Assembly (NCBI GenBank): GCA_964016885.1
Contig: OZ024755.1
Span: 27,652,001-27,716,000 of the forward strand
Length of the DNA stretch: 64,000 nt
Source: Eledone cirrhosa
Taxonomy: Eukaryota
Direction: 5' to 3'
The position numbers and the translations under genes are program-made. Positions 1-34,100 of the stretch are shown here, piece by piece (the stretch's first letter is position 1; each line of letters opens with the position of its first letter). The notes under the pieces are model-generated. The model had not been told where the DNA came from and did no database searches. It was given only the letters and a program-made list of their open reading frames with translations.

Positions 1-1240
1 TATCTGTAGTTGACACCAACTGTCAGTTCTCTGTCTGTAGTTGACTCCAACTGTCAGTTCTGTATCTGTAGTTGACACCAACTGTCAGTTCTGTATCTGT
101 AGTTGACACCAACTGTCAGTTCTCTGTCTGTAGTTGACTCCAACTGTCAGTTCTGTGTCTGTAGTTGACACCAACTGTCAGTTCTGTGTCTGTAGTTGAC
201 ACCAACTGTCAGTTCTGTATCTGTAGTTGACACCAACTGTCAGTTCTGTATCTGTAGTTGACTCCAACTGTCAGTTCTGTATCTGTAGTTGACACCAACT
301 GTCAGTTCTGTATCTGTAGTTGACTCCAACTGTCAGTTCTGTCTGTAGTTGACACCAACTGTCAGTTCAGTATCTGTAGTTGACACCAACTGTCAGTTCT
401 GTATCTGTAGTTGACACCAACTGTCAGTTCTGTATCTGTAGTTGACACCAACTGTCAGTTCTGTCTGTAGTTGACACCAACTGTCAGTTCAGTATCTGTA
501 GTTGACACCAACTGTCAGTTCTGTATCTGTAGTTGACACCAACTGTCAGTTCTGTATCTGTAGTTGACACCAACTGTCAGTTCTCTGTCTGTAGTTGACA
601 CCAACTGTCAGTTCTCTGTATGTAGTTGACACCAACTGTCAGTTCAGTATCTGTAGTTGACTCCAACTGTCAGTTCAGTATCTGTAGTTGACACCAACTG
701 TCAGTTCTGTATCTGTAGTTGACACCAGCTGTCAGTTCTGTATCTGTAGTTGACTCCAACTGTCAGTTCTGTATCTGTAGTTGACACCAACTGTCAGTTC
801 TGTGACTGTAGTTGACACCAACTGTCAGTTCTGTATCTGTAGTTGACACCAACTGTCAGTTCTGTATCTGTAGTTGACACCAACTGTCAGTTCTCTGTCT
901 GTAGTTGACACCAATTGTCAGGTCTGTGTCTGTAGTTGACACCAACTGTCAGTTCTGTATCTGTAGTTGACACCAACTGTCAGTTCTGTGTCTGTAGTTG
1001 ACACCAATTGTCAGTTCTATGTCTGTAGTTGACACCAACTGTCAGTTTTGTCTTTAGTTGACTCCAACTGTCAGTTCTGTGTCTGTAGTTGACACCAACT
1101 GTCAGTTATGTCTGTAGTTGACTCCAACTGTCAGCTCTGTATCTGTAGTTGACACCAACTGTCAGTTCTGTGTCTGTAGTTGACACCAATTGTCAGTTCT
1201 GTGTCTGTAGTTGAGTCTAACTGTCAGTTCTGTATCTGTA
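1..1240. repeat. 31-bp tandem minisatellite (TATCTGTAGTTGACACCAACTGTCAGTTCTG), runs off the window start
   Basis: About 40 head-to-tail units, some 29 bp; internal hairpin AGTTG-ACAC-CAACT. Confidence 0.97.
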
Positions 1241-14209: not shown

Positions 14210-14335
14210 TTGTATTAAAATAAATCATAATTATAAAACACGATTTTTTGGGGGGTTTTGAAAATCAAATATACAAAGAAATTTTATTAGATATTAATTA
14301 ACATGAAACACAGAAATATTGCAGAAATATTTCTC

Positions 14336-14341
14336 TTTATT
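14336..14341 (-). terminator. Candidate polyadenylation signal AATAAA of the calcitonin-like gene
   Basis: AATAAA on the minus strand about 57 nt after the stop; common motif in AT-rich DNA. Confidence 0.35.
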
Positions 14342-14397
14342 CTCGAAATACAAACTCGAGAGGAATGTTTTTGTATCTGGCTTTAATAACTTGTTGG

Positions 14398-14569
14398 TCA
14401 GATAACATTGGCACGTTGCTGCAACTTTAATTGAATGGCACTTCTCTTCCTTCGTCCAGGACTTTTTGCACTGTCCAGATAACGCCATCTGTCTAAATCT
14501 ATGGAAGTGTGATACGTGGGACACTGTCCACCAAGTGCTCCTATTTTACTATCACAGCCTCTCTTCCGC
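14398..14569 (-). CDS. Calcitonin-like neuropeptide precursor, last coding exon (mature peptide 14559-14458)
   Basis: Acceptor CTTCTTTTCTTTCTATTGTAG; reads (A)RKR-GCDSKIGALGGQCPTYHTSIDLDRWRYLDSAKSP-G-RRKR-SAIQLKLQQRANVI*: two N-terminal Cys, C-terminal Pro-Gly amidation signal, basic cleavage sites. Confidence 0.9.
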
Positions 14570-14634
14570 CTACAATAGAAAGAAAAGAAGAATGTTTACA
14601 TCAAATAAAAAAAGAAGAAAAAAGATAATAATAA

Positions 14635-15020
14635 TAATTGTTGCTACTTTTGGCACAAGGCCAGCAATTACCCAGTGCATTACTGGTACTTTATTTTATC
14701 GACCCCGTAAGGATGAAAGGCAAAGTTAACCTCGGCGGGATTTGAACTCAGAATGGCAAGGGCCGTAACTCTATGCGTCAAAGCATGGCGTCTGACCCTC
14801 TACCGATACTGCCAATCCACTGCCAAAAAAGATAATAATTGTTTCTACGTTAGGCACAAGGCCAGCAATTATCGCAGTGTATTACTGGTACTTTATTTTA
14901 TCGACCCCGTAAGGATGAAAGGCAAAGTTAACCTCGAGGGGATTTGAACTCAGACCGTAAAGAGGCGTAACTCTATGCTGTAAAGCATGACGTCCGACCC
15001 TCTACCGATACTGCCAATCA
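14635..15020 (-). mobile_element. Two tandem tRNA-SINE copies
   Basis: Reverse complement of the SINE at about 14635-14823 and 14836-15020. Confidence 0.9.
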
Positions 15021-15467
15021 AATAATAATGATTTCTTTATTAACCACAAAAGGTTTACGTCAAGAAAAACATTATGACAGTACAGGACGAAAACATAGTG
15101 TGTGTGCGTGTATATATATATATATATATATATATGCGTGTGTGTGCGTGTGTGTGTGTGTGTGGTGGGGGTGGTGGTGCGTGTAAACAAATTTTAACAA
15201 TGTTAAAAAATATAACAATAAAATTAAAACAAAGTAAGTTCCTCAATAGGGAGGAGACATTCGAGGGTCATTCGTGGAAAAAACCCATAAAACCAGGGAT
15301 GTCTTGATCTTTAGGGTAAGAGCCCTGTCCCAGTTGTACTCGTCCAACCTACAGGCTTACACCTGTCTTAGATTCTTAAACATATCGTTTTCTACATGAG
15401 AACATTATGTTTATATATACAATGAATTATCGAAAGGCTTGGATGATTAGAAATTTGAAAATGTGGG

Positions 15468-15668
15468 ATTTTTAGCTGAGGTTAGCGACATAACTTTCAT
15501 CCGCAGACCCATTGGTGCATCAGGGCTGACGAAAAATGTTCTAATGGGATGTCGATCTTTCCTCATAAAAAACACAGGATCTTTATTTATCACCATACTC
15601 TCACCCTAGTCAAAGACTAATTGAATTATGCTCAATTAGTTCGACAATTCCTCTGTTGAGATTACAAG
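15468..15668 (+). repeat. Unclassified interspersed repeat (other copies 30305-30505 inverted, 30639-30764)
   Basis: Shared CCGCAGACCCATTGGTGCAT...GTCGATCTTTCCTCATAAAAA...TTTATCACCATAC; internal hairpin CTAATTGA-ATTATGC-TCAATTAG. Confidence 0.8.
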
Positions 15669-16224
15669 GAGATAACTGTAATAACAGCCGATCGCTATAA
15701 GTAAAAGCTTGGAAAAGGGTAAAATACCTCCAGGGACGGAAAAATAAGTGGCCAACAACTGTTCCTTGGGATATTTTATCCATGGCCTCCAAGTGCCTGA
15801 TCCATCGGAGCTCAGAAGTATCAGATCATACTAAGATCTTGATAGCGGACCTAATAAGAGGGATGATAGATGTGTCCCGCACGTGCGATCTAACAGAGTT
15901 AGACACACACACAGTACTTTATCCACGGCACACAGTACTCAATATGTGTGGGCGTGCGCACACATGTATCTGTAGATGTGAATGTGTCTGGTCTTTGTTT
16001 TAAAGAACAAAGACAACAATTCAGGGTTTCCCAACTTTGGGCGATTTCTGCTACTGGGTAGCTTAGTAGAAAATTGGGCAACTTAGTAGAAAATTGTGAG
16101 TGATTGGAAATTTTGGTGGACCATTAGGATTTTGTGTATTAATAAGGTATCTACTCGAAAATAATATCCAAAGGAGATATACAAAGAACCTGTATAAAAA
16201 AAAAAAAAAAAATTAGGAGGCTAA

Positions 16225-16662
16225 ATGGGAATTAAGGAGCACCTCTTCCTAGCAACTGTTGAGTTCGTTCTGCTTTACGGCAGTGAAACGTGGACTATTG
16301 ACGAAGTCCTATGCAAGAGACTTGACGGATGTTACACGAGGATGCTGAGAATGGCTCTCAACGTTTCTTGGAAACAGAAGCTGACAAATAAGGAACTATA
16401 CAGCTCAGTACCACCAGTCTCAAAAAGAGATGCCTGCTGACGAATGAAACTGGCCGGGCACTGCATCCGTCATCCAGAAGAGACAGCATCACAACTTGTG
16501 CTTAGGAAACCGGCGGTCGGACGAAGAAGCGTGGGAAGACAGGCCGTCTCATTCATTGATACCCTGCTGAGAGATGCCAACATTGATAACATCGACGAAC
16601 TGAGAAATGTCATGTTCGACCGGGACGATTGGAGGAGGCGTGCTGAATCTTTGCGAGTGTAA
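16225..16662 (+). mobile_element. RTE-clade LINE 3' fragment with in-frame stop
   Basis: VLLYGSETWT...LDGCYTRMLRMALNVSW...*RMKLAGHCIRH...GRRSVGRQ...DRDDWR typical RTE ORF end. Confidence 0.9.
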
Positions 16663-16666
16663 ACTC

Positions 16667-16982
16667 GAAAGAAGAAGAAGTAGAAGTAGAAGAAGAAGAA
16701 GAAGAAGGCAAAGAAGGCAAAGAAGAAGAAGAAGGCAAAGAAGAAGAAGAAGAAGAAGAAGAAGGCAAAGAAGGCAAAGAAGAAGAAGAAGAAGAAGAAG
16801 GCAAAGAAGAAGAAGAAGAAGAAGAAGGCGAAGAAGAAGAAGAAGAAGGCAAAGATGAAGAAGAAGAAGAAGAAGGCAAAGAAGAAGGCAAAGAAGAAGA
16901 AGGCGAAGAAGAAGAAGAAGGCAAAGAAGAAGGCAAAGAAGAAGGCAAAGAAGAAGGCAAAGAAGAAGGCAAAGAAGAAGAA

Positions 16983-17013
<31 letters not shown>

Positions 17014-17064
17014 GCAAATAATAATAATAAGAAGAAGAAGGTAAAGAAGAAGGCAAAGAAGAAA
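16667..17064 (+). repeat. Compound (AAG)n/GCA microsatellite, expanded LINE tail
   Basis: Starts immediately after the RTE stop codon. Confidence 0.95.
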
Positions 17065-17159
17065 TGGGAATAACTGGGCCACATTCCACGATATGATATA
17101 AATATCCTCCGCAAGCCAGAAACATTTTCTAGAGTTTTAAGAAGGGTCATTAACATTCA

Positions 17160-18097
17160 AATAGTTCTTCTGATAAAACAACATTTGTTTTCGGGTATAA
17201 ATCAGACCTTGAACAAAAGCTCGTGTAGAAAATTCACTGTTACTGTGGAGATCGATATTCTACATTTACAAATCTCTAGTCATTTTGTGAAACTGTCCAC
17301 AACTACTAGATAATTGTTTCTACTTTAGGCACAAGGCCAGCAATTATCCAGTACATTACTGGTACTTTATTTTATCGACCCCGTAAGGATGAAAGGCAAA
17401 GTCAACCTCGACGGGATTTGAACTCAGACCGTAAAAGGACGTAACTATGCTGGAAAGCATGGCGTCTGACTGTCTGACTCTCTACCGATACTGCCAACCC
17501 ACCGCCCTCCACAACTACTAGATAATACGATCCGTTTAACGATCCTGCAAAATCTATGTGTAACCTGATCCTTTGGGCCAAGGTTGAAATTTTATAGGTG
17601 GTGATTTCGCTGCAAGAGTACAGCCTCTGCAGGCATTTACTAATTTCTCGACATCGTGGTCCATTTTGGCCTGTAAACATAAATTCTCATGATTGACTTC
17701 ATCCTAGAAATTCCTGGATGTCCAGTGTGGAAATCATTTAACATTCGTTTTTGTAGTGAAACAGGCATTACGACCCTCTGTACATACATAAGTACATCAT
17801 CACATCGAATACGAGTTCGAATCCGTGTTACATCCAGCAACAGGCATTTTTTCTTTTATCTTCCAATCTCACTATTTTTTCATTTCATTAACAAACTCAT
17901 CCTTTTTTTGCCTTAATTTCTATTTCCTCCAATGTGACGGGCAATTCTCGCACACTGTTCCATAGTATATATTTTATTTTGTTTTCGGCTCTTAAAGCCG
18001 CGATCACAGTGTCTTCTAGTGGTCCACTGTATTTTGGTATTAATCTCGACAAATCATCCGCATTTTCCATTTTTTTTTTAGATGGCAAATACTCCAC
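17160..18097 (-). mobile_element. Gypsy LTR-retrotransposon pol fragment (RNase H end, HHCC zinc finger, start of integrase core), degraded
   Basis: MEYLPSKK..NADDLSRLIP; DFHTGHPGISRMKS; RLHIDFAGSLNGSYYLVVV; interrupted by a SINE. Confidence 0.88.
17315..17507 (-). mobile_element. tRNA-SINE inserted in the Gypsy integrase with 19-bp TSD
   Basis: TCCACAACTACTAGATAAT at 17296-17314 and 17508-17526. Confidence 0.93.
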
Positions 18098-18520
18098 TGT
18101 TCACAATTGACTACATCACTACTCCCCCGTATCATACAAGATCGAACGGACAAGCTGGACGCTTTGTGGACACGTTCAAAAGGGCGCTACAACAATTTAA
18201 CAATGAGGAAGCGGAGGAGGTATTGTTACAACAATTCCTGAGAGTTTACCGAGTAACGCCAAACCCAAATACCGTTTGAGGCATGTCACAGGCTGAACCG
18301 ATGTTTGCCAGAAAATTTTGATAAACTACTGCCAGGACGTAAAATAAAGACCTGGAGAAACAGCAATATTACATCCAAATATTTCAAATCTGAGGAGAAG
18401 GTATTTTTCAGAGTCTACAGGAATGGAAAGGAAGGTTGGGAAGACGGTGTAATAAAAAAAAAAAAAAATGGATCACTAAATGACGTACATGGTGCAAGGT
18501 TCGAAATGAGAACACAAAAG
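18098..18520 (+). mobile_element. Gypsy integrase C-terminal part, opposite orientation to the adjacent piece
   Basis: TPPYHTRSNGQAGRFVDTFKRAL...FLRVYRVTPNPN...EKVFFRVYRNGKEGWEDGVI. Confidence 0.85.
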
Positions 18521-18559
18521 GCAGATGTTTCTTACATTGTGTTTGTTTCGCTAGTAATT

Positions 18560-18893
18560 TAACAGCGTCCTTAGATACCAGGAAGTCAGGAACCGCACCA
18601 ACCAGCAGCTAGTCTAGTCTCTTCTGCCATCTGCAAGCGACGCCTGGGCTGGTTTGGGTCACGCTTTGAGACTTCCCCCGGAGAGACTGGCGAACCAAGT
18701 ACTTAAATGGAACCCACAGGGAAGCAGACGGAGAGGGCTACCCAAAATGAACTGGCACCAGACAGTTGAGAGGGACCTGCGAGCGACAAACAGACAATGG
18801 CGGGACGCTGTGCAACTGGCTGCTGACCGAACGCGGTGGAACACTATGATTGCCTCATGCGTCGCAAGACGCGGGAGCTTCTGAGTCTGAGTA
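18560..18893 (+). mobile_element. RTE-type LINE 3' fragment
   Basis: WFGHALRLPPERLANQVLKWNPQGSRRRGLPKMNWHQTVERDL...AADRTRW; short TGAGT tail repeat. Confidence 0.88.
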
Positions 18894-18899
18894 AGATAC

Positions 18900-19247
18900 C
18901 ATCTAGATAATAAACACAACCACAAGGATACGGTCCGAACGTGGAAGAGCCGAACTCCCACTGTCATCGCCTCCATCTCTCTCGCCCTCCCCATCTCTCT
19001 GTATGGTGGGTAAATGGGGTCCCACATGCTGGCCTCCCCACAGCCGTGGCGGACAGAATGGAGAAGGCGTTTCCCCGGCGGATGGTAAGGGAGATGCGCT
19101 GGAAGAGCCCTTCCATCTCGCGAGGCTCACACCTACGGCTGGCCAGCTCAGCACCTATGGTGGTGAGTAGGGAGGTAGCCCTAGGGCCAAGGACACCAGA
19201 AGTCTCCACTGCCGAGGGCACGGCCGCAAACCTGTCGGAGAGAGGTC
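18900..19247 (-). mobile_element. CRE-like non-LTR retrotransposon 3' end (restriction-like endonuclease C-terminus plus 3' UTR)
   Basis: PSAVETSGVLGPRATSLLTTIG...LFQRISLTIRRGNAFSIL matches the recalled P.AVET.G..G...FQR.S.AIQRGNA motif of CRE RLE domains. Confidence 0.75.
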
Positions 19248-19323
19248 AGGTTTTGATAAACTATTGTAAAATAAATACCAGGAGAAACAGCAATATTTCA
19301 AACCTGGGAATAAGGTGTTTTTG

Positions 19324-19493
19324 AGGGACATCAGACTCGGTTTGGATACTTCTGTCGCCCGTCATTTCTGTTCTCCTTATCATTCTTTCCTGCATGTTTC
19401 AGTACTGGGTGTCATGGATCACAGGCCTCGCGCACCAGGACTGAACAAAGTCTGATTCACCGCCTTGGGTCCTATTCCCCTCTTGGAAGAAAT
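19324..19493 (+). mobile_element. Penelope-like element GIY-YIG endonuclease C-terminal fragment
   Basis: RDIRLGLDTSVARHFCSPYHSFLHVSVLG, frameshift, then EQSLIHRLGSYSPLGRN. Confidence 0.75.
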
Positions 19494-19494
19494 A

Positions 19495-19585
19495 TGCTGT
19501 ATTCAGGCCTGGAGACGGTTGAACTCCGCTAGACTTAAAATGCCCAAGAAATGCTGTATGTCAATACGGCGACCCCACGATTCCT
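19495..19585 (-). repeat. Short interspersed repeat fragment (second copy at about 29575-29675, +)
   Basis: Shared GAATCGT..CGCCGTATTGACATACAGC..GGGCATTTT..AGGCCTGA.TACAGCA. Confidence 0.7.
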
Positions 19586-20403
19586 TCAGGAGATAAGAAA
19601 AAAAATTCTGTGTTTAGAAATGTGATGTGAAAGAACTCACTTGACTTATTTATTTACAAGTTTCCCACTGGGGACCTGGAATCCCTTTTGTGTTGAGCAT
19701 TCAATATTTCACATATCGTTTGGAAGTTTGAAATCAATGATTCCTCTTCTTGGAATAATGGCTGTACCTTATGGTGTAATGAAGCAGAATTTTTTTTTGC
19801 AAATTAACAGAGGGCGCTTTAGGTTTTATTTTATATTTCATCTAACGATGTCCCCCCCCCCCACCCTCACACACTTTTCAGTCCTCTCCATCTCATGGGA
19901 ACGTTTGGGTTCATTCTCCATTTCTACCAGTGCCATATATATACGAAGTTCCTGTGGTGTAGCGAAGCGACTCGATAAGAAGAAGAAGACTATTATTCTG
20001 TTGTTGGGTGGAGTTGTGAAAGAAGGTTTTATATATATTTTAGTATCATGCCTCTGATATTGTTGAAATACTTCTAGAACAAAAGGTTTTTCTCTGGATA
20101 TGATTAATGTAGTGTATTGTTAGTATAGCTAAGGTTTTAATTCAGTGAAGAGTAGAATGGTTTTCTTTTTTTTGCTGGATCAGCAACCGCTCTATTTAAT
20201 CAGTTCTGAAACATTACTGGAAATCTATAAGAATCCAGCTTCTATAATTCTCGGCAGAACCGAAGGGATAAGTAGTTTACTCCCCTTTGTTTTTGCCGAG
20301 AATAAATAAGTGACATAGTCACTACTTTAAAATTCATAGCGAATGGTCTTCAAAATGTTTTTAGTTAAACATATAGAATATAATCAAATATACTATAGAT
20401 ACA

Positions 20404-20519
<116 letters not shown>

Positions 20520-20560
20520 CGAAACATAAGTCAATTGCATGAACTCATAATCCTTTATTT

Positions 20561-20616
20561 ACTGCTATATATATTTCGATGATAGCCATTGAATGGCTAT
20601 GACCTCATCAGGCAGT
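20561..20616 (-). ncRNA. Minimal type-I hammerhead ribozyme, family 1
   Basis: ACTGC-CTGATGA-GGTcATAGCCATTCAATGGCTATcATC-GAAA-TATATA-TA-GCAGT: stem I ACTGC/GCAGT, palindromic stem III, AUA cleavage triplet. Confidence 0.85.
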
Positions 20617-21066
20617 TAGTCAGTTCTTAGATATGCCAGCTCTGTGTTTATAGTGTTGTTGGTATCAGAGCCTTGGGACATATGAGCTTCTTAGGAATAA
20701 TTTAATGTTGTCACCAGGAATAGTCTTGATTCTCACTGGTCAGTTTGTAGATGGTAGTAGGGTTGGTATTTGACCTGAAAGAGGCAGGTGGTGTTGTAAA
20801 GTTCAAACCGTCGGGCAAGATGACAATAGTTCCATATGACTGATTTTCATAAAAAGCATTCCTGGGCAGATATATATCCAATTGAGGTTTATAATATGAA
20901 ATTCGATACTACAGGTCATTCTTAAATTGAGGAATTTATGTGGAGTGGTGCTACTGAAGTTTATGGTTAGAGTAGAACATTTACAAATAAAAAGACTTAT
21001 GTAGGTTGGATTGCACTACACTCACACCCACCTCCACAGACACACACACACATATATATATATATT

Positions 21067-21243
21067 TATAGGAACGAGTAGGACCCCGACGGCTGAGCTC
21101 AAGCCGTTTCGACGGCTAATTCTGGAAACGGCTTGAGCTCAGCCGTCGGGGTCCTACTCGTTCCTATTACCCACTCTACTACCCTAAGTATTGAGTACTT
21201 TGGTGTGTTATGGTCCATCTGGTTCCTTACCACATTTCCTTCG
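21067..21243 (+). mobile_element. Palindrome-headed short element in TA-rich sites (copies 26363-26556, 56317-56511; partials 22483-22546, 25687-25770, 60578-60622)
   Basis: About 42-55-bp inverted arms (GACCCCGACGGC.GAGCTCAAGCCGTTTC) followed by about 80-bp tail TTACCCACTC...GGTTCCTTACCAC..TCCTTCG. Confidence 0.85.
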
Positions 21244-21506
21244 TTATATATATATATATATATTTATAAATTTCTGCGATTCTGTCACAACACGTAAAGA
21301 GGAAGGAGTAGTTTCGCTACCTCATACTACTCCTCTCTCTTTACGTCTACTGCCTGCGTGAATGTATGTGTGTAAAAGGAAGTAAGGGGATTAGTGAAAA
21401 AAAAAACAACTAACTATGTGTGAGTGTATGTGTATGTGTGTTAGTGTGAATGTATGTCTGTGAGTGTATTTTTGTAAGTGTGTCTGTGTTTGTGCGTTTA
21501 TATTTA

Positions 21507-22473
21507 CTAGCAGAAAAACCACCCGAAAGGTGGTTTTTCTGCTAGCATGTGTAGTGTGTATATTGATATTATACGCAAGTATACACGCATGTAGATATGA
21601 TACGTCAAATAAAATCGTAATTGACAATATACACAGAAATTGAAGAGAGACTGTGTTACACTGTCTTCTGTAATCAGTAAAGTAATCCATGATACATTTA
21701 AAAAAAACGATATTATATATCTGCTAGCATGTGTAGTGTGTATATGGATATACACATGATACATTTAAAAAAGACGATATTATATATCTGCTAGCATGTG
21801 TAGTGTGTATATTGATATACACATGATACATTTAAAAAAGACGATATTATATATCTGCTAGCATGTGTAGTGTGTATATTGATATACACATGGTACATTT
21901 AAAAAAGACGATATTATATATCTGCTAGCATGTGTAGTGTGTATATTGATAGAGACATGATACATTTAAAAAAGACGATATTATATGTAAATTGATATTA
22001 TATGTAAATTACGGTGAAATCTAATGAAACCTTATATAACGATGCAAATATATGGATGTTTATATAAGCAATGTAATAAGTGTTATGATATAATGGACAC
22101 TAACCGGAAGTTTAGACATTTGAAAATTTTAAAAGAAGTGAATCTTAAAATAAGCAATCATTATATATAAGAATATTTATGTTTAATCAACAGCTACGAA
22201 ATTTAGTAGATACATTATGTAATATTCATTCTTTATTTGTTGAAGGGCGGTGGATTGGCAGTATCGGTAGAGGGTCGGACGCCATGCTTTGCAGCATAAT
22301 TACGTCCCTTTACGGACTGAGTTCAAATCCCGCCGGGGTTAACTTTGCCTTTCATCCTTACGGGGTCGATAAAATAAAGTACCAGTAATGCACTGGTGAA
22401 TTGCTGGCCTTGTGCCAAAAGTAGAAACAATTATTTATTGAAAGTAATCTAACTTATTTTACTATAGTTATGA
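21507..22473 (-). mobile_element. Helitron A second copy with internal 67-bp tandem array and SINE insertion
   Basis: Same CTAG/hairpin end and internal sequence as 12939-14209; 4 x 67-bp units at 21721-21985. Confidence 0.75.
22246..22430 (+). mobile_element. tRNA-SINE with imperfect TSD inside Helitron A
   Basis: TTATTTGTTGAAG / TTATTTATTGAAAG flanks; empty site at about 14112 in the other copy. Confidence 0.92.
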
Positions 22474-23132
22474 TATACTCATACGTTCGGATCTAGCTGT
22501 CGAAACGGCCGGAGCTCAGCCGTCGGGGTCCTGACTCTTTTCCTATATACTCATACATATAAATGTATACATATGCACGTACACACACGCATGCACACAC
22601 CTATATATACATATACGCGTCAGCGCATGAAAAAGAATCTAGTACAATTAAAATATGTTTTGTTATGAAGGGTATAATATATTGTCTATATTAAATTTTG
22701 GTTTAGTCTAGACTAGTTAATATGGGTATGATATATTTTTAATAGGTTAACGATGATTAATTAATAGTGCCAGTCGTGATATTTGTAGCTGAGTTATGGT
22801 ATTTTGTAAGAGAGGTCACGCTTGGTTCAGGCTTGTTGTATTCATTTACTTTTATTTAGATGTTGGGTGGGGTTATGAAAAAGGGAATTACACATATATG
22901 CACACATATATTTATATATTAGTATATATATATATATATATATTGTTATATTTTGGGAGGGTCATGTTGCCAATAAGAAACACACGCACCATAAGTAACA
23001 CAAGCAGCGATTCTTTGCTTAAACTTTAATCTGTTATTTTAATAAATATTTGCTCTACGGTTCTTATATATCTGATATATATTTATCCTTATCGAGCCCT
23101 CTTTGGATTTTAGTCTTCAAATCTATTATTAT

Positions 23133-23192
<60 letters not shown>

Positions 23193-23231
23193 GAAAAAGT
23201 GAGTCCTTCATCATATATATATATATATATA

Positions 23232-23863
23232 GTTATACTTTGGGAGGGTCATGTTGCCAATAAGAAACACACGCACCAGTTGCTTTCACTTCAATTTATT
23301 ATAAATTAAATTTATAAATTTAGGAATTTATAAATTTCCGGTTGGTTGGTTGGTTCCACAACCAGACGATTGTTCATATATTGTCAAAGTTCTTTCGTCA
23401 CACATTCTGTGACCTCTTCGGTGACTGGGGATTATTTTCTTTGTTTTTGTGCCTCTCCTTTGTTCTGTCCTACGCCATCTTCTTTTTGTGTGTGTTGTGT
23501 GCTTAGTTTGCGCATGTGTTACATCCGGGTGTCTGTGTGTGTTTATATTTGTTTATTTACATGTTACTGGTTGTTTGTTTGTTTTATGTGTGTGTGTGTT
23601 TTCATTTTGTCCTTAATTGTAAGTTGTGATGTTGCTATTCCATTCATGTTTTCTATTTAATTTTGGTTGGAGTTCATTGGAGTTCACTGAAGAGGTCACA
23701 GAATGTGTGACGAAAGAACTTTGACAATATATGAACAATTGTCTGGTTGTGGAACCAACCAACCAACCGGAAATTTATAAATTCCTAAATTTATAATAAA
23801 TTGAAGTGAAAGCAACTGGTGCGTGTGTTTCTTATTGGCAATATGACCCTCCCAAAGTATAAC
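23232..23863 (-). mobile_element. 5'-truncated Penelope-like element with inverted pLTRs
   Basis: Inverted arms 23232-23425 and 23684-23863; minus-strand ORF end NELQPKLNRKHEWNSNITTYN* (GIY-YIG P.LN motif); hammerhead in each arm; related pLTRs at about 22944-22990 and 26060-26345. Confidence 0.82.
23682..23725 (+). ncRNA. Minimal hammerhead ribozyme, family 3 (inverted twin at 23383-23425 has mutated core CCGAAGA)
   Basis: GTTCA-CTGAAGA-G-GTCACA-GAATG-TGTGAC-GAAA-GAAC-TT-TGAC. Confidence 0.65.
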
Positions 23864-23922
23864 AATATCGGTTTCAAAACACGTTTTCAGATAAAGAATC
23901 TTGCTAAACAAATTCAGAAACG

Positions 23923-23970
<48 letters not shown>

Positions 23971-24108
23971 CCAAAGGTTAGTATGGTTCGTTGATTACTC
24001 AACGAATACAATATTACAATAGATTAGAAGCACTCTAGGATTTTCCTGGAGTTTTTAATATTATTCAAAATGTTAACAAATGAAAAATATTCTCATAATC
24101 AAAATATA

Positions 24109-24171
24109 TATTTTATTATACATATTTCAAAGGTACTATGGTGTTTAAGTACGTTTTCATCAGACAAAATA
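24109..24171 (-). ncRNA. Minimal type-I hammerhead ribozyme, family 2
   Basis: TATTTTGT-CTGATGA-AAAcGTACT-loop-AGTACcTTT-GAAA-TATGTA-TA-ATAAAATA. Confidence 0.75.
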
Positions 24172-24239
24172 TATGATTTGATATGTGACATACCGTTACG
24201 GTATTGATTATTGAATTCCAGTATTGGCTGTCATATATA

Positions 24240-25525
24240 CAAGGTGTGGACGATATTTGTTCGCAATTTTCAACTGCTAATTTTATGCAATTTTTTTTTA
24301 CTTCCGTTGTCACTCTTGTCTTCATAAAAACAGTGACTATATTTCCATTATTTATTTTCAGAATAATTGATTATGAATAATTTTGAACCTCCAAATTTGT
24401 GGAAGAGACGCGGAGTTCTTCTTGGAATCCGCGCCGGGAGGACAAATAAAGAAAATTCAGACTTTCTCAGCATCAGCAGGAGAATGGTAGACAAGGTCAG
24501 AAAGGAATTGGAAGATTCAGGATTCGACTACGAAGCAACATCAGCGAGGAAAGCACATGATCGACGATCTGACGCCTTCAGAACGCCTGAGTTCGTCGCT
24601 GAAGTTCAGGATATCATCAACAATGAACCTAGCAAGTCGATGCGTGCCATTGCAAAGGAGAAAGGCGTGGATGAAAAGCTCATTAGGCTGGTGGTACATG
24701 AAGACATTCGCTACGTTTCATACAAGATGACGAAAGGACAATTTCTGTCAAAGGCGATGCAAGAAAAGCGACTGAAGCACGCAAAGAAGCTGATCAACAA
24801 GTTGATTCACCCACTGGAGCCAGGCATGCTGTGGTTTTTCTCCGACGAGAAAAACTTCTGCCAAGACCAGAAGATCAACTCCCAGAACAACAGGTGGCTC
24901 GCTGTCTCATCCAAAGACGTGCCCAGAGTTATGCAGACAAAGTTTCCAGCGACAACATTGGTCTTAGGTGTCGTTAGCAGTCAAGGTGACGTCATGCATC
25001 CTCACTTCTTCCTTGAGGGCCTCAAGCTGAACACCGATGGCTACATCAGCGTTCTGAGCGAGGTAGTAAAGCCCTGGATCGACCAGGTAGCTGCAGGTAG
25101 GCCGTACGTGTGGCAGCAAGACTCAGCGCCCTGCCATACCAGCCAAAAGACCCAAGCCTAGCTGTTAGAGAACTTCGTCGACCACACTTCACCTGACATC
25201 TGGCCTCCCAGCTCGCCTGACTGCAACCCCCTCGACTTCTTTGTGTGGGGCGCAGTGGAACGAGACACCAACAGATCTAGCTGCAATACGAAAGACGATC
25301 TGAAGACCAGGACCACAAGTGCCTTTAGGGGGACAGTGATGAAGGCCTGTAGCCGGTTCCGAGGCCGCCTTGAGGCCGTCATCAAAGCCGGGTTTATCGA
25401 ATGAGATCGAAAGAACAAGTCATGAAGACAAACTGACCCAAGTTTGATAAATAAATCTTAAAAAATAAAACTACTGTGTTACTTTTTCCTAGACTGTAAT
25501 CTTGCGAACAAATATCGTCCGCACC

Positions 25526-25528
<3 letters not shown>
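24240..25528 (+). mobile_element. Full-length Tc1/mariner transposon, maT (DD37D) family
   Basis: TIRs CA(A/G)GGTG(T/C)GGACGATATTTGTTCGCAA, TA flanks at 24238-9 and 25529-30. Confidence 0.95.
24373..25404 (+). pseudogene. maT DD37D transposase with one in-frame TAG (25159-25161)
   Basis: WFFSDEK, WQQDSAPCHT, WPPSSPDCNPLD; 37 residues between the 2nd and 3rd Asp; frame stays open after the stop to ...AGFIE*. Confidence 0.93.
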
Positions 25529-25593
<65 letters not shown>

Positions 25594-25843
25594 TATCCAG
25601 GAAGCTCTAACCGCTAAGGTTGTCTTTTTTCCGGGTATGTCAATATTTATTTATAAAACAAATGTGTATTTTATCTGATGAAAGCGCACCATAACGCACA
25701 GAGTACTCAATACTTAAGGTAGTAGAGTGGGTAATAGGAGAAAGTATGACCCCGACGGCTATTTCTGGACTTTTTTTCCAGGAAAAATTTGAACCGTTAA
25801 GATCTCGTTCCTGGATATGTCAATATTTATGAAACAAACTTTG

Positions 25844-25906
25844 TATTTTATCTGATGAGGGCGTACCAAAGTTTTGGTACCCTTGAAATATATATATAAT
25901 AGAATA
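25844..25906 (+). ncRNA. Minimal type-I hammerhead ribozyme, family 2 (truncated tandem copy at 25667-25690)
   Basis: TATTTTAT-CTGATGA-GGGcGTACCAAA-GT-TTTGGTACcCTT-GAAA-TATATATA-TA-ATAGAATA. Confidence 0.8.
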
Positions 25907-25947
25907 AATATGGTTTTATAAATGTAGTTTCCATTTATTAATATAAT

Positions 25948-26002
<55 letters not shown>

Positions 26003-26061
26003 TTTATTTATTTAAATAAAAATGGCGTAGACATACAATACAATAGGAGGGAATATAATAG

Positions 26062-26105
26062 TACCACTGATGATGTTGCAGATGTGCAACGAAAGAACTT
26101 TGTTA
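26062..26105 (+). ncRNA. Minimal hammerhead ribozyme, family 3
   Basis: TACCA-CTGATGA-T-GTTGCA-GATG-TGCAAC-GAAA-GAAC-TT-TGTTA. Confidence 0.62.
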
Positions 26106-27039
26106 GACTATATATATATGTATTTATATCTGTATTTTTGACCGTTGGTCAGTCAATGTTAAACATTGATGGCCGGATGAATTAACTATGGAAATATAAA
26201 AAAAAACAGAAGCGAAAACCAACCAAACAGTGAGTGTGTTGTTATTATTTTTGGCAATATTATTACAACAATATGACCATCCCCAAGTATAACAATATTT
26301 GTTTCGACACACGATTTCATATCAAAAACCTTGCAAAACAAATATATATATATGTAATATATAATACGAAAAAAGTATGACCCCGACGGCAGAGCTCAAG
26401 CCGTTTCGACGGCTATTTCAGTCCAGAAATAGCCGTCGATCCGGCTTGAGCTCTGCCGTCGGGTTCATACTTTTCCCTATTACCCACTCTACTACCCTAA
26501 GTATTGAGTACTCTGGTGCGTTATGGTCCATCTGGTTCCTTACCACAATTCCTTCGTTTGTAATATATAATATATATATATATGTGTGTGTGTACACACG
26601 CATATATATATATATATGTATGTATACGTGCCTACACACTCACATACATACGTATGTGTGTATATATATTTATATATATTTCAAAATTGACAAGAGGTAA
26701 AATACATCTGCGGTTATCGACTCTTGAAATGGACGTACCCAATTTCGACGTCTACCGACAACACTGCTCGTCCATTCGGAGTCAGTGGTCTAGCAAAGAA
26801 GCTAAACACTGACCTGAAGTATTTTACGTGACAAAAACAAAGATTATGTTAAAGTTATTGTAGATATAACTATTGGCTTTGAATTAGAAGCCTTAGCTGT
26901 GAAAAACAAAACGAATTGCAAAGTTTAAACACATTCAAGTCTTCCTCTGTACACAGCAAAAAACCCAAACAATATTATTCTTATACTAACATGTTAACGA
27001 TTATTTTCATCTCATCAGAGAATGACTACCAGTAGTGAT

Positions 27040-27215
27040 TCTCCCTTACCACCCTCCGGGGAAATGCCGTCTCCATTCTGTCTGCCGGGGCTGTGGAGCG
27101 GCCAGCACGTGGGACCCCATTTGCTTACAACACAGAGAAATGGGGAGGGTGAGAGAAATGCAGGTGACAGTGGGAGTTCGGCTCCTCTGTGTTCGGACAC
27201 ATTGCACCTGTCATG
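27040..27215 (+). mobile_element. CRE-like retrotransposon 3' fragment
   Basis: Homologous to 18900-19100 in inverted orientation. Confidence 0.7.
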
Positions 27216-27680
27216 TGGATCTTGTGACGTCATTTTTTTTTCTGGCCACTCTGGTTTTATGATTCAAAACTGCTCCCTTTACAAATTTACTCGTGTTTTT
27301 ATTTGTATGTAGAATTATTAATGGTGATAGTCATAACTTAATTTCTGTGTAGATATTACCAAATACTCATTATCTTATATACACAGTGATTCCGTGTATG
27401 TAGTAATGTCGCTATAGGAACATCAGATATGTCATACAGATTAGAGAAACTAAAACAATTATCTGAAATGGTCAGTGTGACACTCTGCATGAATTGTATC
27501 CTACGTCTTGTGACCAAATTAAATAAATAATCAATATTTTTTGCTAGAATACAGCATAAATGTGAAGATTAAAACAAATTTAATGCAGATACAACTATAG
27601 TTGAATTTTTTAAATTAGAAATCTTAGCCATGAAAAGAATGAACTGTGAAGTGCAAGAACTTTCAACTACTCAATGAAAT

Positions 27681-28028
27681 ATTGTTTCTACTTTTGGTAC
27701 AAGGTCAGCAATTACCCCAGTGCATTACTAGTGCTTTATTTTATGAACCCCCGTAAGGATGAAAGGCAAAGAGTTAACCTCGGCAGGATTTGAACTCAGA
27801 CCGCAAAGGGTCGTAACTCTATGCTGCAAATCATGGCGTCCGAGGTTTCTATTTTTGGCATAAGGCCAGCAGTTACCCCGGTTTATTACTGGTACTTTAT
27901 TTTATCGATCCAGTAAGGATGAACGATAAAGTAAACCTCGGCGGGAGTTGAACTCAGAAAGTAAAAGGCCATAACTCTATGCTGCAATGCATGGCGTCTG
28001 ACGCTCTAGCGATACTGCCAATCCACTG
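27681..28028 (-). mobile_element. Two tandem tRNA-SINE copies
   Basis: Reverse-complement SINE bodies at 27681-27845 and 27846-28028. Confidence 0.88.
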
Positions 28029-28277
28029 CATGCCTAAATTAGCCGAGCAAGAACTATCCATTTTCAGAATTTTAATCTTGATTAGTAATCCCTCCATGGG
28101 AAATAGATGAAGGTAAATATAACTCCTCTAAAGATCGAACCTGCATTGCAGCCTCTACATGCTAGCAGCAAATGTTTGTGGCATCTGTGCCACAGCACCC
28201 ATACTGAGATAAATTTACAGAATTATATAGGAATACTCGTATTTTGTGAAACATAAATTATTAGAAGTTATACTCAC

Positions 28278-28355
28278 GCTTGTCTTAGTAGAGTCTGAAG
28301 TCTGTTTTGAAACCTGTTTACTGGTGCATCCCTTGTAATAGGATTGGTACGAATA
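28278..28355 (-). CDS. Calcitonin-like precursor, propeptide exon (78 nt, phase 2-2)
   Basis: Acceptor TTTTTTCTCTTTGATGGTTTTCAG, donor GTGAGT; reads (S)IRTNPITRDAPVNRFQNRLQTLLRQ(A); joins both neighbouring exons in frame. Confidence 0.85.
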
Positions 28356-28411
28356 CTGAAAACCATCAAAGAGAAAAAATATTATGTGCCGGAGATATAT
28401 TTTTAGTTTGA

Positions 28412-28619
28412 CCCTTTAGCATTTACATTACTCTATATTTACTATTGTATTTTCGTGGTAAAAACTTTATCTCGCATAATATCGAAGCTACGAGATTTTG
28501 TTGTTATTTATTTTGAGAACAATACCTTATCATTGGTATGAGTGGCCAGTTAGGGCCGGTTTGAACAGAAAGAGGTGAGAACATTCTAGCCAGATATGGT
28601 CGGTTTAAATGCTAAAGGG
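28412..28619. mobile_element. piggyBac-like MITE
   Basis: TIR CCCTTTAGCATTTA / TAAATGCTAAAGGG flanked by TTGA and TTAA. Confidence 0.8.
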
Positions 28620-28825
28620 TTAAGACTCCATATTACATTTTAGTAAACCGAAGAATTATAAAACTGAGTGATTCTGCCGAATCACTCAGTTCACGTAACT
28701 AGTTCACTTAATATACTCTACTAACGTTCTAGAGAACAGCATGAATATCATTTCTAATTTAGACACAAGGTCAATAAATTTGGTGGAGGGGTAAAGCTGT
28801 TTAAACAAAGCCAGTACTTTACTGT

Positions 28826-28955
28826 GGAGGCGCGTGGCCTAGTGGTAGGGGTGTTGCACTTATGATCATAATGTCGTGGATTCGATTCCTGGGCTGGGCT
28901 GTGTGTTATGTTCTTGAGCAAAGCACATCATTTCACGGTGCTCCACTATACTCAG
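28826..28955 (+). mobile_element. Second tRNA-SINE family (CORE-like body)
   Basis: A box TGGCCTAGTGG, B-box-like GATTCGATTCC, body TGTTCTTGAGCAAAGCAC. Confidence 0.65.
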
Positions 28956-29004
28956 TGGAGGTATGTGACCTTGTGGTAAGGGTGTTGGACTTTATAGAGG
29001 AAGA

Positions 29005-29163
29005 ATCGATCCCAGTACTGGACTGGCACTTTTTTTTATCGACCTCAAAAGGACGAAAGGACAAAGTTGACGTCGTGGGATTTGAACTCAGACCGCAGAG
29101 AGCCAGAACGAACACCGTAAAGCATTCTATCCGACGTTCTAACGACTCTGCCAATTCATCACC
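29005..29163 (-). mobile_element. Diverged tRNA-SINE; similar copies 29723-29882 and 31003-31112
   Basis: TTTTATCGACC...GGGATTTGAACTCAG...GCCAATTC. Confidence 0.8.
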
Positions 29164-29209
29164 TTTCATTGAATCTTATGAAATGGTAGAACTTGAAAAC
29201 GATTTTTAC

Positions 29210-29298
29210 CTGTCTAATTCGTTCAATTGCGGATCATACCAAGCCCAGGTAGATGGAAGCACAAGAAGCAAAGTGAGAAGATAATATAGTGTTGCCAT
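29210..29298 (-). CDS. Calcitonin-like precursor, first coding exon (signal peptide); exon starts at 29315 with 17-nt 5' UTR
   Basis: Acceptor TTTCTATCTATTTTCAG, GCAATGG start context, MATLYYLLTLLLVLPSTWA|WYDPQLNELD(S), donor AG|GTAAAA, phase 2. Confidence 0.87.
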
Positions 29299-31177
29299 TG
29301 CCGTAGAAAAGGAATCTGAAAATAGATAGAAATTTAATATAATATTATACATTAGATCCTATTTCCACGGTTTCTCCATAGCACGGTCAATAAATACTTT
29401 TATGAGCAACAATTATTTATTACCTCCATTGGAAGCATTTGAAGAATCTGATTGGAAATAAGCCCTCTCATGTCAGTTACGAATATAAGATGAATAATAG
29501 GAATATTTCAATGAATTGTGTGAAGTTGTGATTAGAATAGTGTATGTATGTATGTATGTATGGTCCCGTAATTCCTGATAGAATCGTAGGAGCGCCGTAT
29601 TGACATACAGCGTTCCTAGGGCATTTTTTAAAGCCTGGCGGAGCCCATCCCTCTCTAGGCCTGAGTACAGCAGATTTCTTCCAGAGAAAGAGAGAAAATG
29701 AGAAAGAGATATAGAGGAAGACTCGACCCCAGTACTAGACTGGTACTTTTTTTATCGACCTCGAGAGGATTAAAGGCAAAGTTGACCTCGATGGGATTTG
29801 AACTCAGAAAGCAGAGAGCCGGAAAAAATACTATAAAGTATTCTTATCCGACGTTCTAACGACTTTGCCAATTCGCCGCCATAGTGGATCTATATCGATT
29901 AACAAAAGCATACGTGTCAAGTTGCATGTTCAAATGAATGTCTCCTTATTAAAGAAGGAAATAAAGCAATAGATAAAGGAACTTATAGAAATTGTCTTTT
30001 CAAATAAAGTACTGCATTCCTCCCAAAGGGTTCTAAAATGAGACCCGTGGAATCAATAGGGCTTTAACATTAGTTTCTTTGTCTTCCATATAGACTACAT
30101 ACATATCAATTACTAACATCATTCCAAATTATTTCCTAAGAGAGTTATATGATGAATTTACAATTGCCTGTTTCACGTGGTCAGAAAAGATGAACGGCAG
30201 CGGTGGTGATTTTCCTTACAAATTGCTTAGGATTTGCTCCTTTGCAAATCTAAATCCTCTGAACACCCAAAAATTAATCTTCAGAGTTGGGTAGATTAGA
30301 TTCATTGTAATCTCAACAGAGGAATTGTCGAACTAATTGAGCATAATTCAATTAGTCTTTGACTAGGATGAAAGTATGGTGATAAACAAAGATCCTGTGG
30401 TTTTTATGAGGAAAGATCGACATACCATTAGGACAATTCGTCAGCCCTGATGCACCAATGGGTCTGCGGATGAAAGCTATGTCGCTAACCTCAGCTAAAA
30501 ATCACATATTTTGCACCATTCTCACACCTGCTTCAAATGAGGAGCATGGAGTACATGTAATAAGCTGTGTGGTAAACATAGGCAGACATCTTTGATATTC
30601 TTAAGTTGATGATCTTATTAAAAGGCTCTTCTATATCCGCGACATGGCTTTCACCCGCAGACCCATTGGTGCATGAGGATTGAAGAAAAATGCTTTAATG
30701 GTATGTCGATCTTTCCTCATAAAAACGGCAGGAACTTTATTTATCACCATACGCTGCCCCTAGTTAACGACTCCCGGAAAGACGACAGAGAATGTAGAAA
30801 AGGTTACTACTGTTGACTGGCATTAATGGTGGTGTTGTATACCATCAGGTCTATGACTTTTCACTGAGTAATCTGTAATATTATATCTATGACTAATGAC
30901 ACCCAATTATGGTGATGTCTAACATAGTGACAATGGTTGTTGAAGGAATGACTCAACGATAGTGGTGATAACATTATGTCTACTCCTATTGACTGATTTA
31001 ATATTTGTTTCTACTTTTGGCACAAAGCCAGCAATTATCCCATTGCATTACTGGTACTTTATTTTATCGACCCCGTATGGATGAAACGCAAAGTTAACCT
31101 TGGCGGGATTTAATAATGGCGGTATATAACAGTATGTCTATGACTTTAGACAGATCCAAACATTACGACTGTTTAAA

Positions 31178-34100
31178 TCAATGTAGTGTCTAACCTTATA
31201 TCTGTTTCTGGTGACTATGTCAATGTAGTGTCTAACCTTATATCTGTTTCTGGTGACTATGACAATGTAGTGTCTAACCTTATATCTGTTTCTGGTGACT
31301 ATGTCAATGTAGTGTCTAACATTATATCTGTTTCTGGTGAGTATGTCAATGTAGTGTCTAACATTATATCTGTTTCTGGTGACTATGTCAATGTAGTGTC
31401 TAACATTATATCTGTTTCTGGTGACTATGTCAATGTAGTGTCTAACATTATATCTGTTTCTGGTGACTATGACAATGTAGTGTCTAACATTATATCTGTT
31501 TCTGGTGACTATGACAATGTAGTGTCTAACATTATATCTGTTTCTGGTGACTATGACAATGTAGTGTCTAACATTATATCTGTTTCTGGTGACTATGTCA
31601 ATGTAGTGTCTAACATTATATCTGTTTCTGGTGACTATGACAATGTAGTGTCTAACATTATATCTGTTTCTGGTGACTATGACAATGTAGTGTCTAACAT
31701 TATATCTGTTTCTAGTGACTATGTCAATGTAGTGTCTAACCTTATATCTGTTTCTGGTGACTATGTCAATGTAGTGTCTAACCTTATATCTGTTTCTGGT
31801 GACTATGACAATGTAGTGTCTAACCTTATATCTGTTTCTGGTGACTATGTCAATGTAGTGTCTAACCTTATATCTGTTTCTGGTGACTATGACAATGTAG
31901 TGTCTAACCTTATATCTGTTTCTGGTGACTATGTCAATGTAGTGTCTAACCTTATATCTGTTTCTGGTGACTATGCCAATGTAGTGTCTAACATTATATC
32001 TGTTTCTGGTGACTATGTCAATGTAGTGTCTAACATTATATCTGTTTCTGGTGACTATGTCAATGTAGTGTCTAACATTATATCTGTTTCTGGTGACTAT
32101 GTCAATGTAGTGTCTAACATTATATCTGTTTCTGGTGACTATGTCAATGTAGTGTCTAACATTATATCTGTTTCTGGTGAGTATGTCAATGTAGTGTCTA
32201 ACATTATATCTGTTTCTGGTGACTATGCCAATGTAGTGTCTAACCTTATATCTGTTTCTGGTGACTATGTCAATGTAGTGTCTAACATTATATCTGTTTC
32301 TGGTGACTATGCCAATGTAGTGTCTAACCTTATATCTGTTTCTGGTGACTATGTCAATGTAGTGTCTAACCTTATATCTGTTTCTGGTGACTATGTCAAT
32401 GTAGTGTCTAACCTTATATCTGTTTCTGGTGACTATGTCAATGTAGTGTCTAACATTATATCTGTTTCTGGTGACTATGCCAATGTAGTGTCTAACCTTA
32501 TATCTGTTTCTGGTGACTATGTCAATGTAGTGTCTAACATTATATCTGTTTCTGGTGACTATGTCAATGTAGTGTCTAACCTTATATCTGTTTCTGGTGA
32601 CTATGTCAATGTAGTGTCTAACATTATATCTGTTTCTGGTGACTATGCCAATGTAGTGTCTAACATTATATCTGTTTCTGGTGACTATGTCAATGTAGTG
32701 TCTAACATTATATCTGTTTCTGGTGACTATGACAATGTAGTGTCTAACATTATATCTGTTTCTGGTGAGTATGTCAATGTAGTGTCTAACCTTATATCAG
32801 TTTCTGGTGACTATGTCAATGTAGTGTCTAACATTATATCTGTTTCTGGTGACTATGTCAATGTAGTGTCTAACATTATATCTGTTTCTGGTGACTATGT
32901 CAATGTAGTGTCTAACCTTATATCTGTTTCTGGTGACTATGACAATGTAGTGTCTAACATTATATCTGTTTCTGGTGACTATGTCAATGTAGTGTCTAAC
33001 ATTATATCTGTTTCTGGTGACTATGTCAATGTAGTGTCTCACATTATATCTGTTTCTGGTGACTATGTCAATGTAGTGTCTAACCTTATATCTGTTTCTG
33101 GTGACTATGTCAATGTAGTGTCTAACATTATATCTGTTTCTGGTGACTATGTCAATGTAGTGTCTAACATTATATCTGTTTCTGGTGACTATGTCAATGT
33201 AGTGTCTAACATTATATCTGTTTCTGGTGACTATGTCAATGTAGTGTCTAACATTATATCTGTTTCTGGTGAGTATGTCAATGTAGTGTCTAACATTATA
33301 TCTGTTTCTGGTGACTATGTCAATGTAGTGTCTAACCTTATATCTGTTTCTGGTGACTATGTCAATGTAGTGTCTAACATTATATCTGTTTCTGGTGACT
33401 ATGTCAATGTAGTGTCTAACCTTATATCTGTTTCTGGTGACTATGTCAATGTAGTGTCTAACATTATATCTGTTTCTGGTGAGTATGTCAATGTAGTGTC
33501 TAACATTATATCTGTTTCTGGTGACTATGTCAATGTAGTGTCTAACCTTATATCTGTTTCTGGTGACTATGTCAATGTAGTGTCTAACATTATATCTGTT
33601 TCTGGTGACTATGTCAATGTAGTGTCTAACCTTATATCTGTTTCTGGTGAGTATGTCAATGTAGTGTCTAACATTATATCTGTTTCTGGTGACTATGTCA
33701 ATGTAGTGTCTAACATTATATCTGTTTCTGGTGACTATGTCAATGTAGTGTCTAACATTATATCTGTTTCTGGTGACTATGTCAATGTAGTGTCTAACAT
33801 TATATCTGTTTCTGGTGACTATGTCAATGTAGTGTCTAACCTTATATCTGTTTCTGGTGACTATGTCAATGTAGTGTCTAACCTTATATCTGTTTCTGGT
33901 GAGTATGTCAATGTAGTGTCTAACCTTATATCTGTTTCTGGTGACTATGTCAATGTAGTGTCTAACATTATATCTGTTTCTGGTGACTATGTCAATGTAG
34001 TGTCTAACATTATATCTGTTTCTGGTGAGTATGTCAATGTAGTGTCTAACATTATATCTGTTTCTGGTGACTATGTCAATGTAGTGTCTAACCTTATATC

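Follow-up and report, generated by a model that had tools for sequence, protein, structure and literature searches.

A calcitonin-type precursor gene in the octopod Eledone cirrhosa, with a spliced transcript contig and an enlarged cysteine ring

The gene and its surroundings

The stretch of Eledone cirrhosa DNA analysed here (64,000 nt, hereafter the window, in whose numbering positions are given) carries on its minus strand a gene with three small coding segments, of 89, 78 and 172 nt, which together make up 339 nt and translate directly, with zero internal stops, into a precursor of 112 amino acids followed by TGA. An earlier note, made from the letters of the window, had proposed a cephalopod calcitonin-like gene, and the assignment of the locus as an octopod calcitonin-type precursor gene is supported by octopod orthologues, by homology with annelid and molluscan precursors and by two listings in published supplements. 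We hold it to be highly probable that this spliced octopod gene encodes a calcitonin-type precursor from which one amidated, ringed peptide of 34 residues would be released, likely to act via a class B G-protein-coupled receptor (GPCR).

The first coding exon (29210..29298, minus strand, as for all features of the gene) encodes a predicted signal peptide (approximately residues 1-19) and the start of the propeptide, and is preceded by 17 nt of 5' untranslated sequence (29299..29315) that follow an AG acceptor and are spliced to an upstream exon. An intron of 854 nt (28356..29209) separates it from the second coding exon (28278..28355), which continues the propeptide and is matched in tblastn, at E 7.5e-10, by the O. 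vulgaris protein CAI9723353.1 (P0006). The second intron (14570..28277) is repeat-rich and spans 13,708 nt; the third coding exon (14398..14569) comprises an RKR site, the mature peptide, Gly-RRKR, a tail of 14 amino acids and the stop. Both introns are in phase 2 and of the GT-AG type, with GTAAAA and GTGAGT as donors and polypyrimidine tracts ending in TTTCAG and TTGTAG as acceptors. The predicted mature peptide, Gly60-Pro93, is encoded at 14458..14559, with the codons of Cys61 and Cys72 starting at 14556 and 14523, respectively, and the start of the 3' untranslated region (14283..14397) contains candidate polyadenylation signals AATAAA at 14341 and 14288. The exon lengths, the canonical splice sites and the in-frame joining that the earlier note had given agree with the translation and with a transcript contig.

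Exon 3 is present in four public runs (X1-X4) of one study, the run types of which are unrecorded. The contigs of X1-X3 continue through the exon-intron borders, as DNA would; X4 has zero depth in the unique intron bins. One X4 contig (488 nt, depth 8.7) matches 29317-29210 with its record positions 112-219 and 28355-28277 with positions 220-298, intron 1 being absent at record position 219/220, and a contig of equal length and depth matches 14569-14379 with record positions 298-488 without mismatches. From the length, the depth and the abutting record positions we infer that the two comparisons concern the same contig, and both splice junctions are supported by this single contig. Its end at 14379 does not demonstrate the end of the transcript, and its 111 bases at the 5' side place nowhere in 27900-30400.

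A strict calcitonin-like pattern has exon 3 as its sole match across the whole window, and of the six strong minus-strand acceptors at positions below 28277 two, that at 14569 included, have an open frame of at least 25 codons. Because the pattern match is unique, the framed acceptors are few and the X4 contig joins the exons, the three-exon model is not a chance product. When exon 3 was searched against the 3.0-Gb genome the one match was exon 3 itself, i.e. it is present in a single copy.

An acceptor lies 17 nt ahead of the ATG, with 29315 as the first exon base. Given this acceptor and the 111 unplaced bases of the X4 contig, a further exon must precede the first coding one, and the gene has at least four exons. 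P0006 is an isoform with a 15-residue N-terminal extension ahead of the signal peptide, the source of which is probably an in-frame ATG in the upstream exon. Scoring of AG|GT donors with seven residues of that extension as query did not locate the exon, either among the 166 donors in the window (best score 1/7) or among the 693 in the next 200 kb (best 3/7). The upstream exon may lie beyond a satellite array at 31178-48127, one of two that flank the gene; the other is at 1225-9865, and both are built of 42-bp units, which are unrelated between the two arrays and number 404 and 206 copies, respectively (95-96% matches). A further array, of 50-bp units, is located at 48163-49955.

Inside the long intron, at 24367-25158 on the plus strand, there is a frame of 264 codons with a Tc3/mariner transposase match below the Pfam cut-off (E 0.0078), probably a transposon remnant. 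Some 80 kb to the left of the window an uninterrupted frame of 630 codons (L031:8075-9964, plus strand; C15:27570075-27571964) contains all four Ribophorin II Pfam domains and had no other match in the genome in a strict first look; it is apparently an intronless, single-copy RPN2 gene. Two frames of 1040 codons (L015:3020 and L019:4333, both plus strand) that have identical first 60 residues and lie about 41 kb apart are probably recent copies of a long interspersed nuclear element.

Octopod orthologues and lophotrochozoan relatives

In keeping with the layout given in the earlier note, the precursor has RKR at residues 57-59, a 34-residue peptide from Gly60 to Pro93 with cysteines at 61 and 72, Gly94, RRKR at 95-98 and a C-terminal tail of 14 residues. 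Its N-terminus is hydrophobic (Kyte-Doolittle 9-mer maximum 2.78 at residue 6, versus 0.7 after residue 25), and 16 of the 19 residues of the predicted signal peptide are identical in O. bimaculoides. The RKR and RRKR sites are kept in the orthologues, whereas Cys61 and Cys72, the bond between which is predicted, and the S-P-G-R of the P93-G94-RRKR end, where amidation is predicted, are invariant in both alignments made. For the amidated and disulfide-bonded 34-mer a monoisotopic mass of 3706.76 Da was calculated.

A protein search with exon 3 retrieved two proteins among 13 candidates, namely O. bimaculoides XP_014768345.1 and Argonauta hians GAB1598914.1, and the cluster of the former also includes O. 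vulgaris CAI9723354.1 and O. sinensis XP_029637143.1. The 112-residue precursor is identical at 91/112 positions to the O. bimaculoides protein, at 92/112 to that of O. vulgaris/sinensis and at 75/112 to that of Argonauta. For the mature peptide the identity is 30/34 in each of the three comparisons (P0003, P0005, P0004), while in the same order of species it is 30/37, 30/37 and 22/37 for the propeptide and 7/14, 8/14 and 1/14 for the C-terminal tail. As the mature part holds at 30/34 throughout and the propeptide and tail are lower, conservation is concentrated on the predicted hormone. The octopod proteins are likely to be one-to-one orthologues. The earlier note had named a lack of spliced reads, and of conservation of the Cys pair and processing site, as speaking against the gene; splicing is seen in the X4 contig, and both the Cys pair and the PG-basic site are conserved.

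The single copy of the gene and the 30/34 residues conserved between Octopus and Argonauta also argue against the proposal that the peptide is a salivary 'doppelganger' aimed at the receptors of prey, rather than an endogenous neuropeptide. Octopuses do make such mimics (bioRxiv 10.64898/2026.02.02.703354), and the peptide is divergent from the calcitonin family; the mimics given in the available part of that preprint, however, are stanniocalcin, luqin, myosuppressin, tachykinin and neurotensin and do not include calcitonin, with the caveat that the molluscan query list printed there had no calcitonin model either. We give a salivary mimic next to no credence, and continue with the peptide as an endogenous one.

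The description of the gene as hidden was overstated, since the orthologues had already been modelled under the four accessions given above, mostly with labels like uncharacterized or hypothetical. The O. bimaculoides orthologue (LOC106867831 / Ocbimv22002419) has the UniRef name 'Calcitonin peptide-like domain-containing protein' and is grouped with calcitonin precursors in the accessible parts of two supplements, that is supplement 3 of PMC6425005, where an O. vulgaris sequence is found too, and the supplement of PMC8557429. The identifier Ocbimv22002419 is named in no main text of the open-access papers searched. As this orthologue is already catalogued among the calcitonins, the gene as such is ordinary and modest as a discovery. 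The protein searches did not retrieve the protein of Eledone cirrhosa itself, which is weak evidence.

A search of 1.84 billion representative proteins recovered octopod sequence and an annelid relative: the three matches were the Argonauta protein, a two-peptide precursor of Owenia (P0008, E 1.6e-4) and P0007 (566 aa, E 4.2e-8). The last is a tandem-repeat protein that has neither the first cysteine nor the PG-basic end; it was taken as a chance match and excluded from all counts. The relatives of P0008 include Urechis calcitonin-1/-2 and precursors of Capitella, chiton, limpet and nemertean. A profile built from 49 calcitonin-type peptides of non-octopods, octopod rows being excluded, was run over the window and 400 kb of flanks (10,691 frames in all) and matches exon 3 at E 1e-10, with the next match at 0.22. 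Reciprocally, exon 3 is the sole match in the 3.0-Gb genome for the annelid P0008 (E 0.138), for a squid-like protein, P0051 (E 0.58), and for a short B-peptide protein, P0038 (E 0.0027). A search of the PDB sequences with the precursor gave no match.

The nearest Atlas clusters of the precursor are neuropeptide precursors, among them DH31 at 0.91, which serves as a lead only. An identity as DH31 was rejected: this peptide lacks the N-terminal cysteine pair (PMC6425005 and PMC12638048, as far as accessible), and the two cysteines are present and conserved here. According to the available text of PMC6283891 (section 4) and PMC12638048, the calcitonin family is characterized by a Cys ring, a central helix and a Pro-amide.

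Descent from the last peptide and the enlarged ring

Following the a/b naming in section 7 of PMC7200681, we denote as B the last peptide of a precursor and as A the internal peptides, of which there are often one or two per lophotrochozoan precursor. Counted over distinct peptides from the retrieved proteins, the ring is C-x7-C in 38/38 non-octopod last peptides (which were retrieved by shared words and are therefore biased to conserved forms, so that their invariance is overstated), C-x10-C in 3/3 octopod peptides and x8-x10 in 11/11 internal peptides. In part of the PMC8557429 supplement another 26 non-octopus last peptides, judged by eye, are also x7, one phoronid peptide has an x6 ring and some B peptides are without the otherwise invariant Glu.

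The octopod peptide retains six positions that are invariant in 38/38 B peptides (G, G, T, L, S and S), as well as an L (37/38), a W (32/38) and a Y (36/38), and it keeps the B traits L-G-G-x-C, a spacing of exactly 21 residues from the second cysteine to Pro, and W-x-Y-L-x-S-x-x-S-P. The start of the predicted helix has been remodelled, with P-T-Y-H-T-S where B peptides have A-T-E-S-A-A. Since the canonical C-x7-C ring and the Thr-Glu two to three residues after the second cysteine are absent, with C-x10-C and Thr-Tyr in their place, the peptide is best classed as B-derived and not as canonical B. It most likely descends from the last peptide of an ancestral multi-peptide precursor.

Profile scores argue for the same assignment, in that the octopod peptides reach 24-31 bits on the B model; with the A model their score is 5.0-9.3 bits, whereas true A peptides left out in turn attain 28.5-53.9 bits. 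This bears on the idea that the peptide stems from an A (internal) peptide, or combines A and B parts as a chimera with its ring taken from an A-type exon, for which it can be said that 3/11 internal peptides (P0010, P0011, P0012) have C-x10-C and that two of these also begin with C-D. Yet the tail alone scores 0.6-4.7 bits on the A model and 14.9-22.9 on the B model, L-G-G-x-C is a B signature, and the B peptide of the squid-like P0051, a protein with a common signal peptide, has an ordinary C-x7-C ring. A search for an alternative or A-type peptide exon in the introns, the window and 400 kb of flanks gave none, and the best score of the A-type profile over 194 intronic minus-strand frames was 2.1 bits. 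We therefore consider an A origin very improbable, although for a chimeric first half of the ring taken alone there are too few residues to decide, and keep to descent from a B peptide. Among the relatives, 11 whose sequences look like read-through of genomic DNA, chosen by eye, carry Arg or Ser immediately ahead of the peptide, at the point where a phase-2 AG acceptor would be read, which suggests that the intron at this place may be old.

P0051 shares its signal peptide with the octopod precursor (33% over 120 columns, E 1e-14) and nevertheless keeps C-x7-C, so that the ring enlargement is likely to be octopod-specific. The three-residue insertion in the ring and the changed helix start would have been fixed before the split of Octopus and Argonauta. 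The peptide of P0051 and its companion P0050 is near-identical to Idiosepius notoides 226650 in the accessible portion of the PMC6425005 supplement. This squid-like orthologue has S-D-P where relatives have K-R-T ahead of the first cysteine, and its mature peptide would therefore need another cut or be N-terminally extended.

A bolder reading, which we think unlikely, is that in coleoids the end of one calcitonin paralogue that activates the receptor was reshaped in opposite directions, by a twelve-residue ring and a rewritten helix start in octopods and by loss of the cleavage site before the ring in squid-like forms, with a changed pharmacology of the octopod ligand. If true, the octopod peptide would have a new receptor preference, or would be, relative to the second calcitonin, a naturally occurring partial agonist or antagonist.

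To judge from the sequences, the derived feature of the octopod gene is its C-x10-C ring, three residues beyond that of the closest relatives, together with the remodelled helix start. No discussion of the enlarged octopod ring was found in the open-access papers searched (subscription papers, e.g. that on the cuttlefish neuropeptidome, lie outside this scope), nor is it mentioned in the accessible parts of PMC13311285 and PMC12919962.

Maturation, receptor and comparison with known calcitonins

By analogy with standard neuropeptide processing, the signal peptide would be removed upon entry into the secretory pathway, a prohormone convertase would cut after RKR (57-59) and at RRKR (95-98), a carboxypeptidase would trim the basic residues, Gly94 would be converted to leave Pro93 amidated, and a Cys61-Cys72 disulfide would close the ring. 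The peptide would then likely activate a CTR/CLR-related 'Cluster A' class B GPCR with cyclic AMP and Ca2+ responses, a proposal made because of the analogy with oyster, in which two CTR/CLR-type receptors respond to Cragi-CT1b and Cragi-CT2 with Ca2+ and cyclic AMP as output (PMC12638048, PMC8557429, available parts). It may plausibly serve in ion and water balance or as a neuromodulator. Portions of the literature link oyster CT2 to water and ion balance (PMC8398477) and report that mussel CALCIIa increases calcium uptake by the mantle (PMC7200681) and that sea cucumber peptides act on PDF-type receptors too (PMC12638048). Searches of open-access papers retrieved no functional work on an octopus calcitonin.

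Several observations weigh against a conventional calcitonin-type precursor gene. The splicing rests on one contig, from one study with unrecorded run type, matched across two comparisons. Pfam gave no family match for exon 3 or for the full orthologues, and likewise none for the relatives P0008, P0016, P0051 and P0052. The ring is C-x10-C and not the C-x7-C of the 38 retrieved last peptides, and the Glu that is invariant in these 38 is replaced by Tyr. One of the 11 A peptides scores 30 bits on the B model, and the B score alone is therefore no separator of the two types. An AlphaFold2 model (19 sequences) places a helix on exon-3 residues 18-32, directly after the ring, as the ring-helix-amide plan of the family would have it, with a predicted local distance difference test (pLDDT) score of 80 for the block 21-30; the model is weak overall, however (mean pLDDT 64, predicted template modelling score 0.34, ring residues 10-14 below 50). 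The helix is, moreover, less amphipathic than that of the relatives (hydrophobic moment 0.14-0.16 versus 0.25 +/- 0.08).

Together the larger ring, the Tyr for Glu and the less amphipathic helix imply that the behaviour at the receptor may differ. The same gene could accordingly encode a peptide that has switched receptor, or that, alongside a second calcitonin with a conventional ring, is a partial agonist or an antagonist, while retaining the C-terminal half that likely docks on the outer domain of the receptor. N-terminally truncated calcitonin and CGRP are antagonists. In the octopod peptide the changes are common to Octopus and Argonauta and are concentrated in the ring and in the first nine residues beyond the second cysteine, the C-terminal W-x-Y-L-x-S-x-x-S-P being kept; and the accessible part of the PMC7200681 supplement gives a separate calcitonin of O. 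bimaculoides whose ring is C-x7-C. On the other hand, both cysteines and L-G-G are kept and 30/34 residues are conserved, as for an agonist co-evolving with its receptor, ring size is flexible among relatives in view of the x8-x10 internal peptides, and the 38-peptide comparison is biased to conserved forms, other B peptides being without that Glu. A second calcitonin gene was not found in the Eledone cirrhosa genome, by weak searches that depend on shared words or on an exact motif and are no proof of its absence. We judge such an altered pharmacology unlikely, and favour a peptide that works through a calcitonin-type receptor. The locus yields a transcript-supported neuropeptide gene model in another octopod and a defined 34-mer for receptor tests, and the naturally enlarged ring lends itself to studies of how the ring is recognised by invertebrate class B GPCRs.

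Compared with known systems, the Octopus and Argonauta orthologues have the same single-peptide layout, C-x10-C ring and PG-basic end, and differ by four substitutions in the mature peptide and by a shorter and divergent C-terminal tail. The squid-like P0051/P0050 have a similar signal peptide and N-terminus, a single B peptide, L-G-G-x-C and the Y-L-x-S-x-x-S-P-G-basic end, but a C-x7-C ring, the canonical A-T-E after the second cysteine, a longer propeptide and no dibasic site directly before the peptide. The last peptides of molluscan CALCI, annelid, nemertean and chiton precursors, among them mussel CALCIb, oyster Cragi-CT1b (counted as B type by inference from its name and the available part of the PMC7200681 supplement), Urechis calcitonin-1/-2 and Platynereis calcitonin, share with the octopod peptide the KR-x-C start, L-G-G-x-C, the 21 residues from the second cysteine to Pro and W-x-Y-L-x-S-x-x-S-P-G-basic; relative to them, the octopod peptide has a ring larger by three residues and P-T-Y-H-T-S for A-T-E-S-A-A. 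Unlike in multi-peptide precursors, no internal A peptide or A exon was found at the octopod locus.

The vertebrate CALCA gene has a signal/pro/mature exon layout with phase-2 introns. The chordate ring has seven residues (Cys1-Cys7) against twelve in the octopod peptide, a CGRP-like alternative exon was looked for in the window and 400 kb of flanks and not found, and the octopod precursor is without a detectable sequence match to PDB or Pfam entries. What the octopod peptide has in common with vertebrate calcitonin is the plan of the molecule: a Cys ring, a predicted central helix and a Pro-amide, the latter predicted for the octopod peptide.

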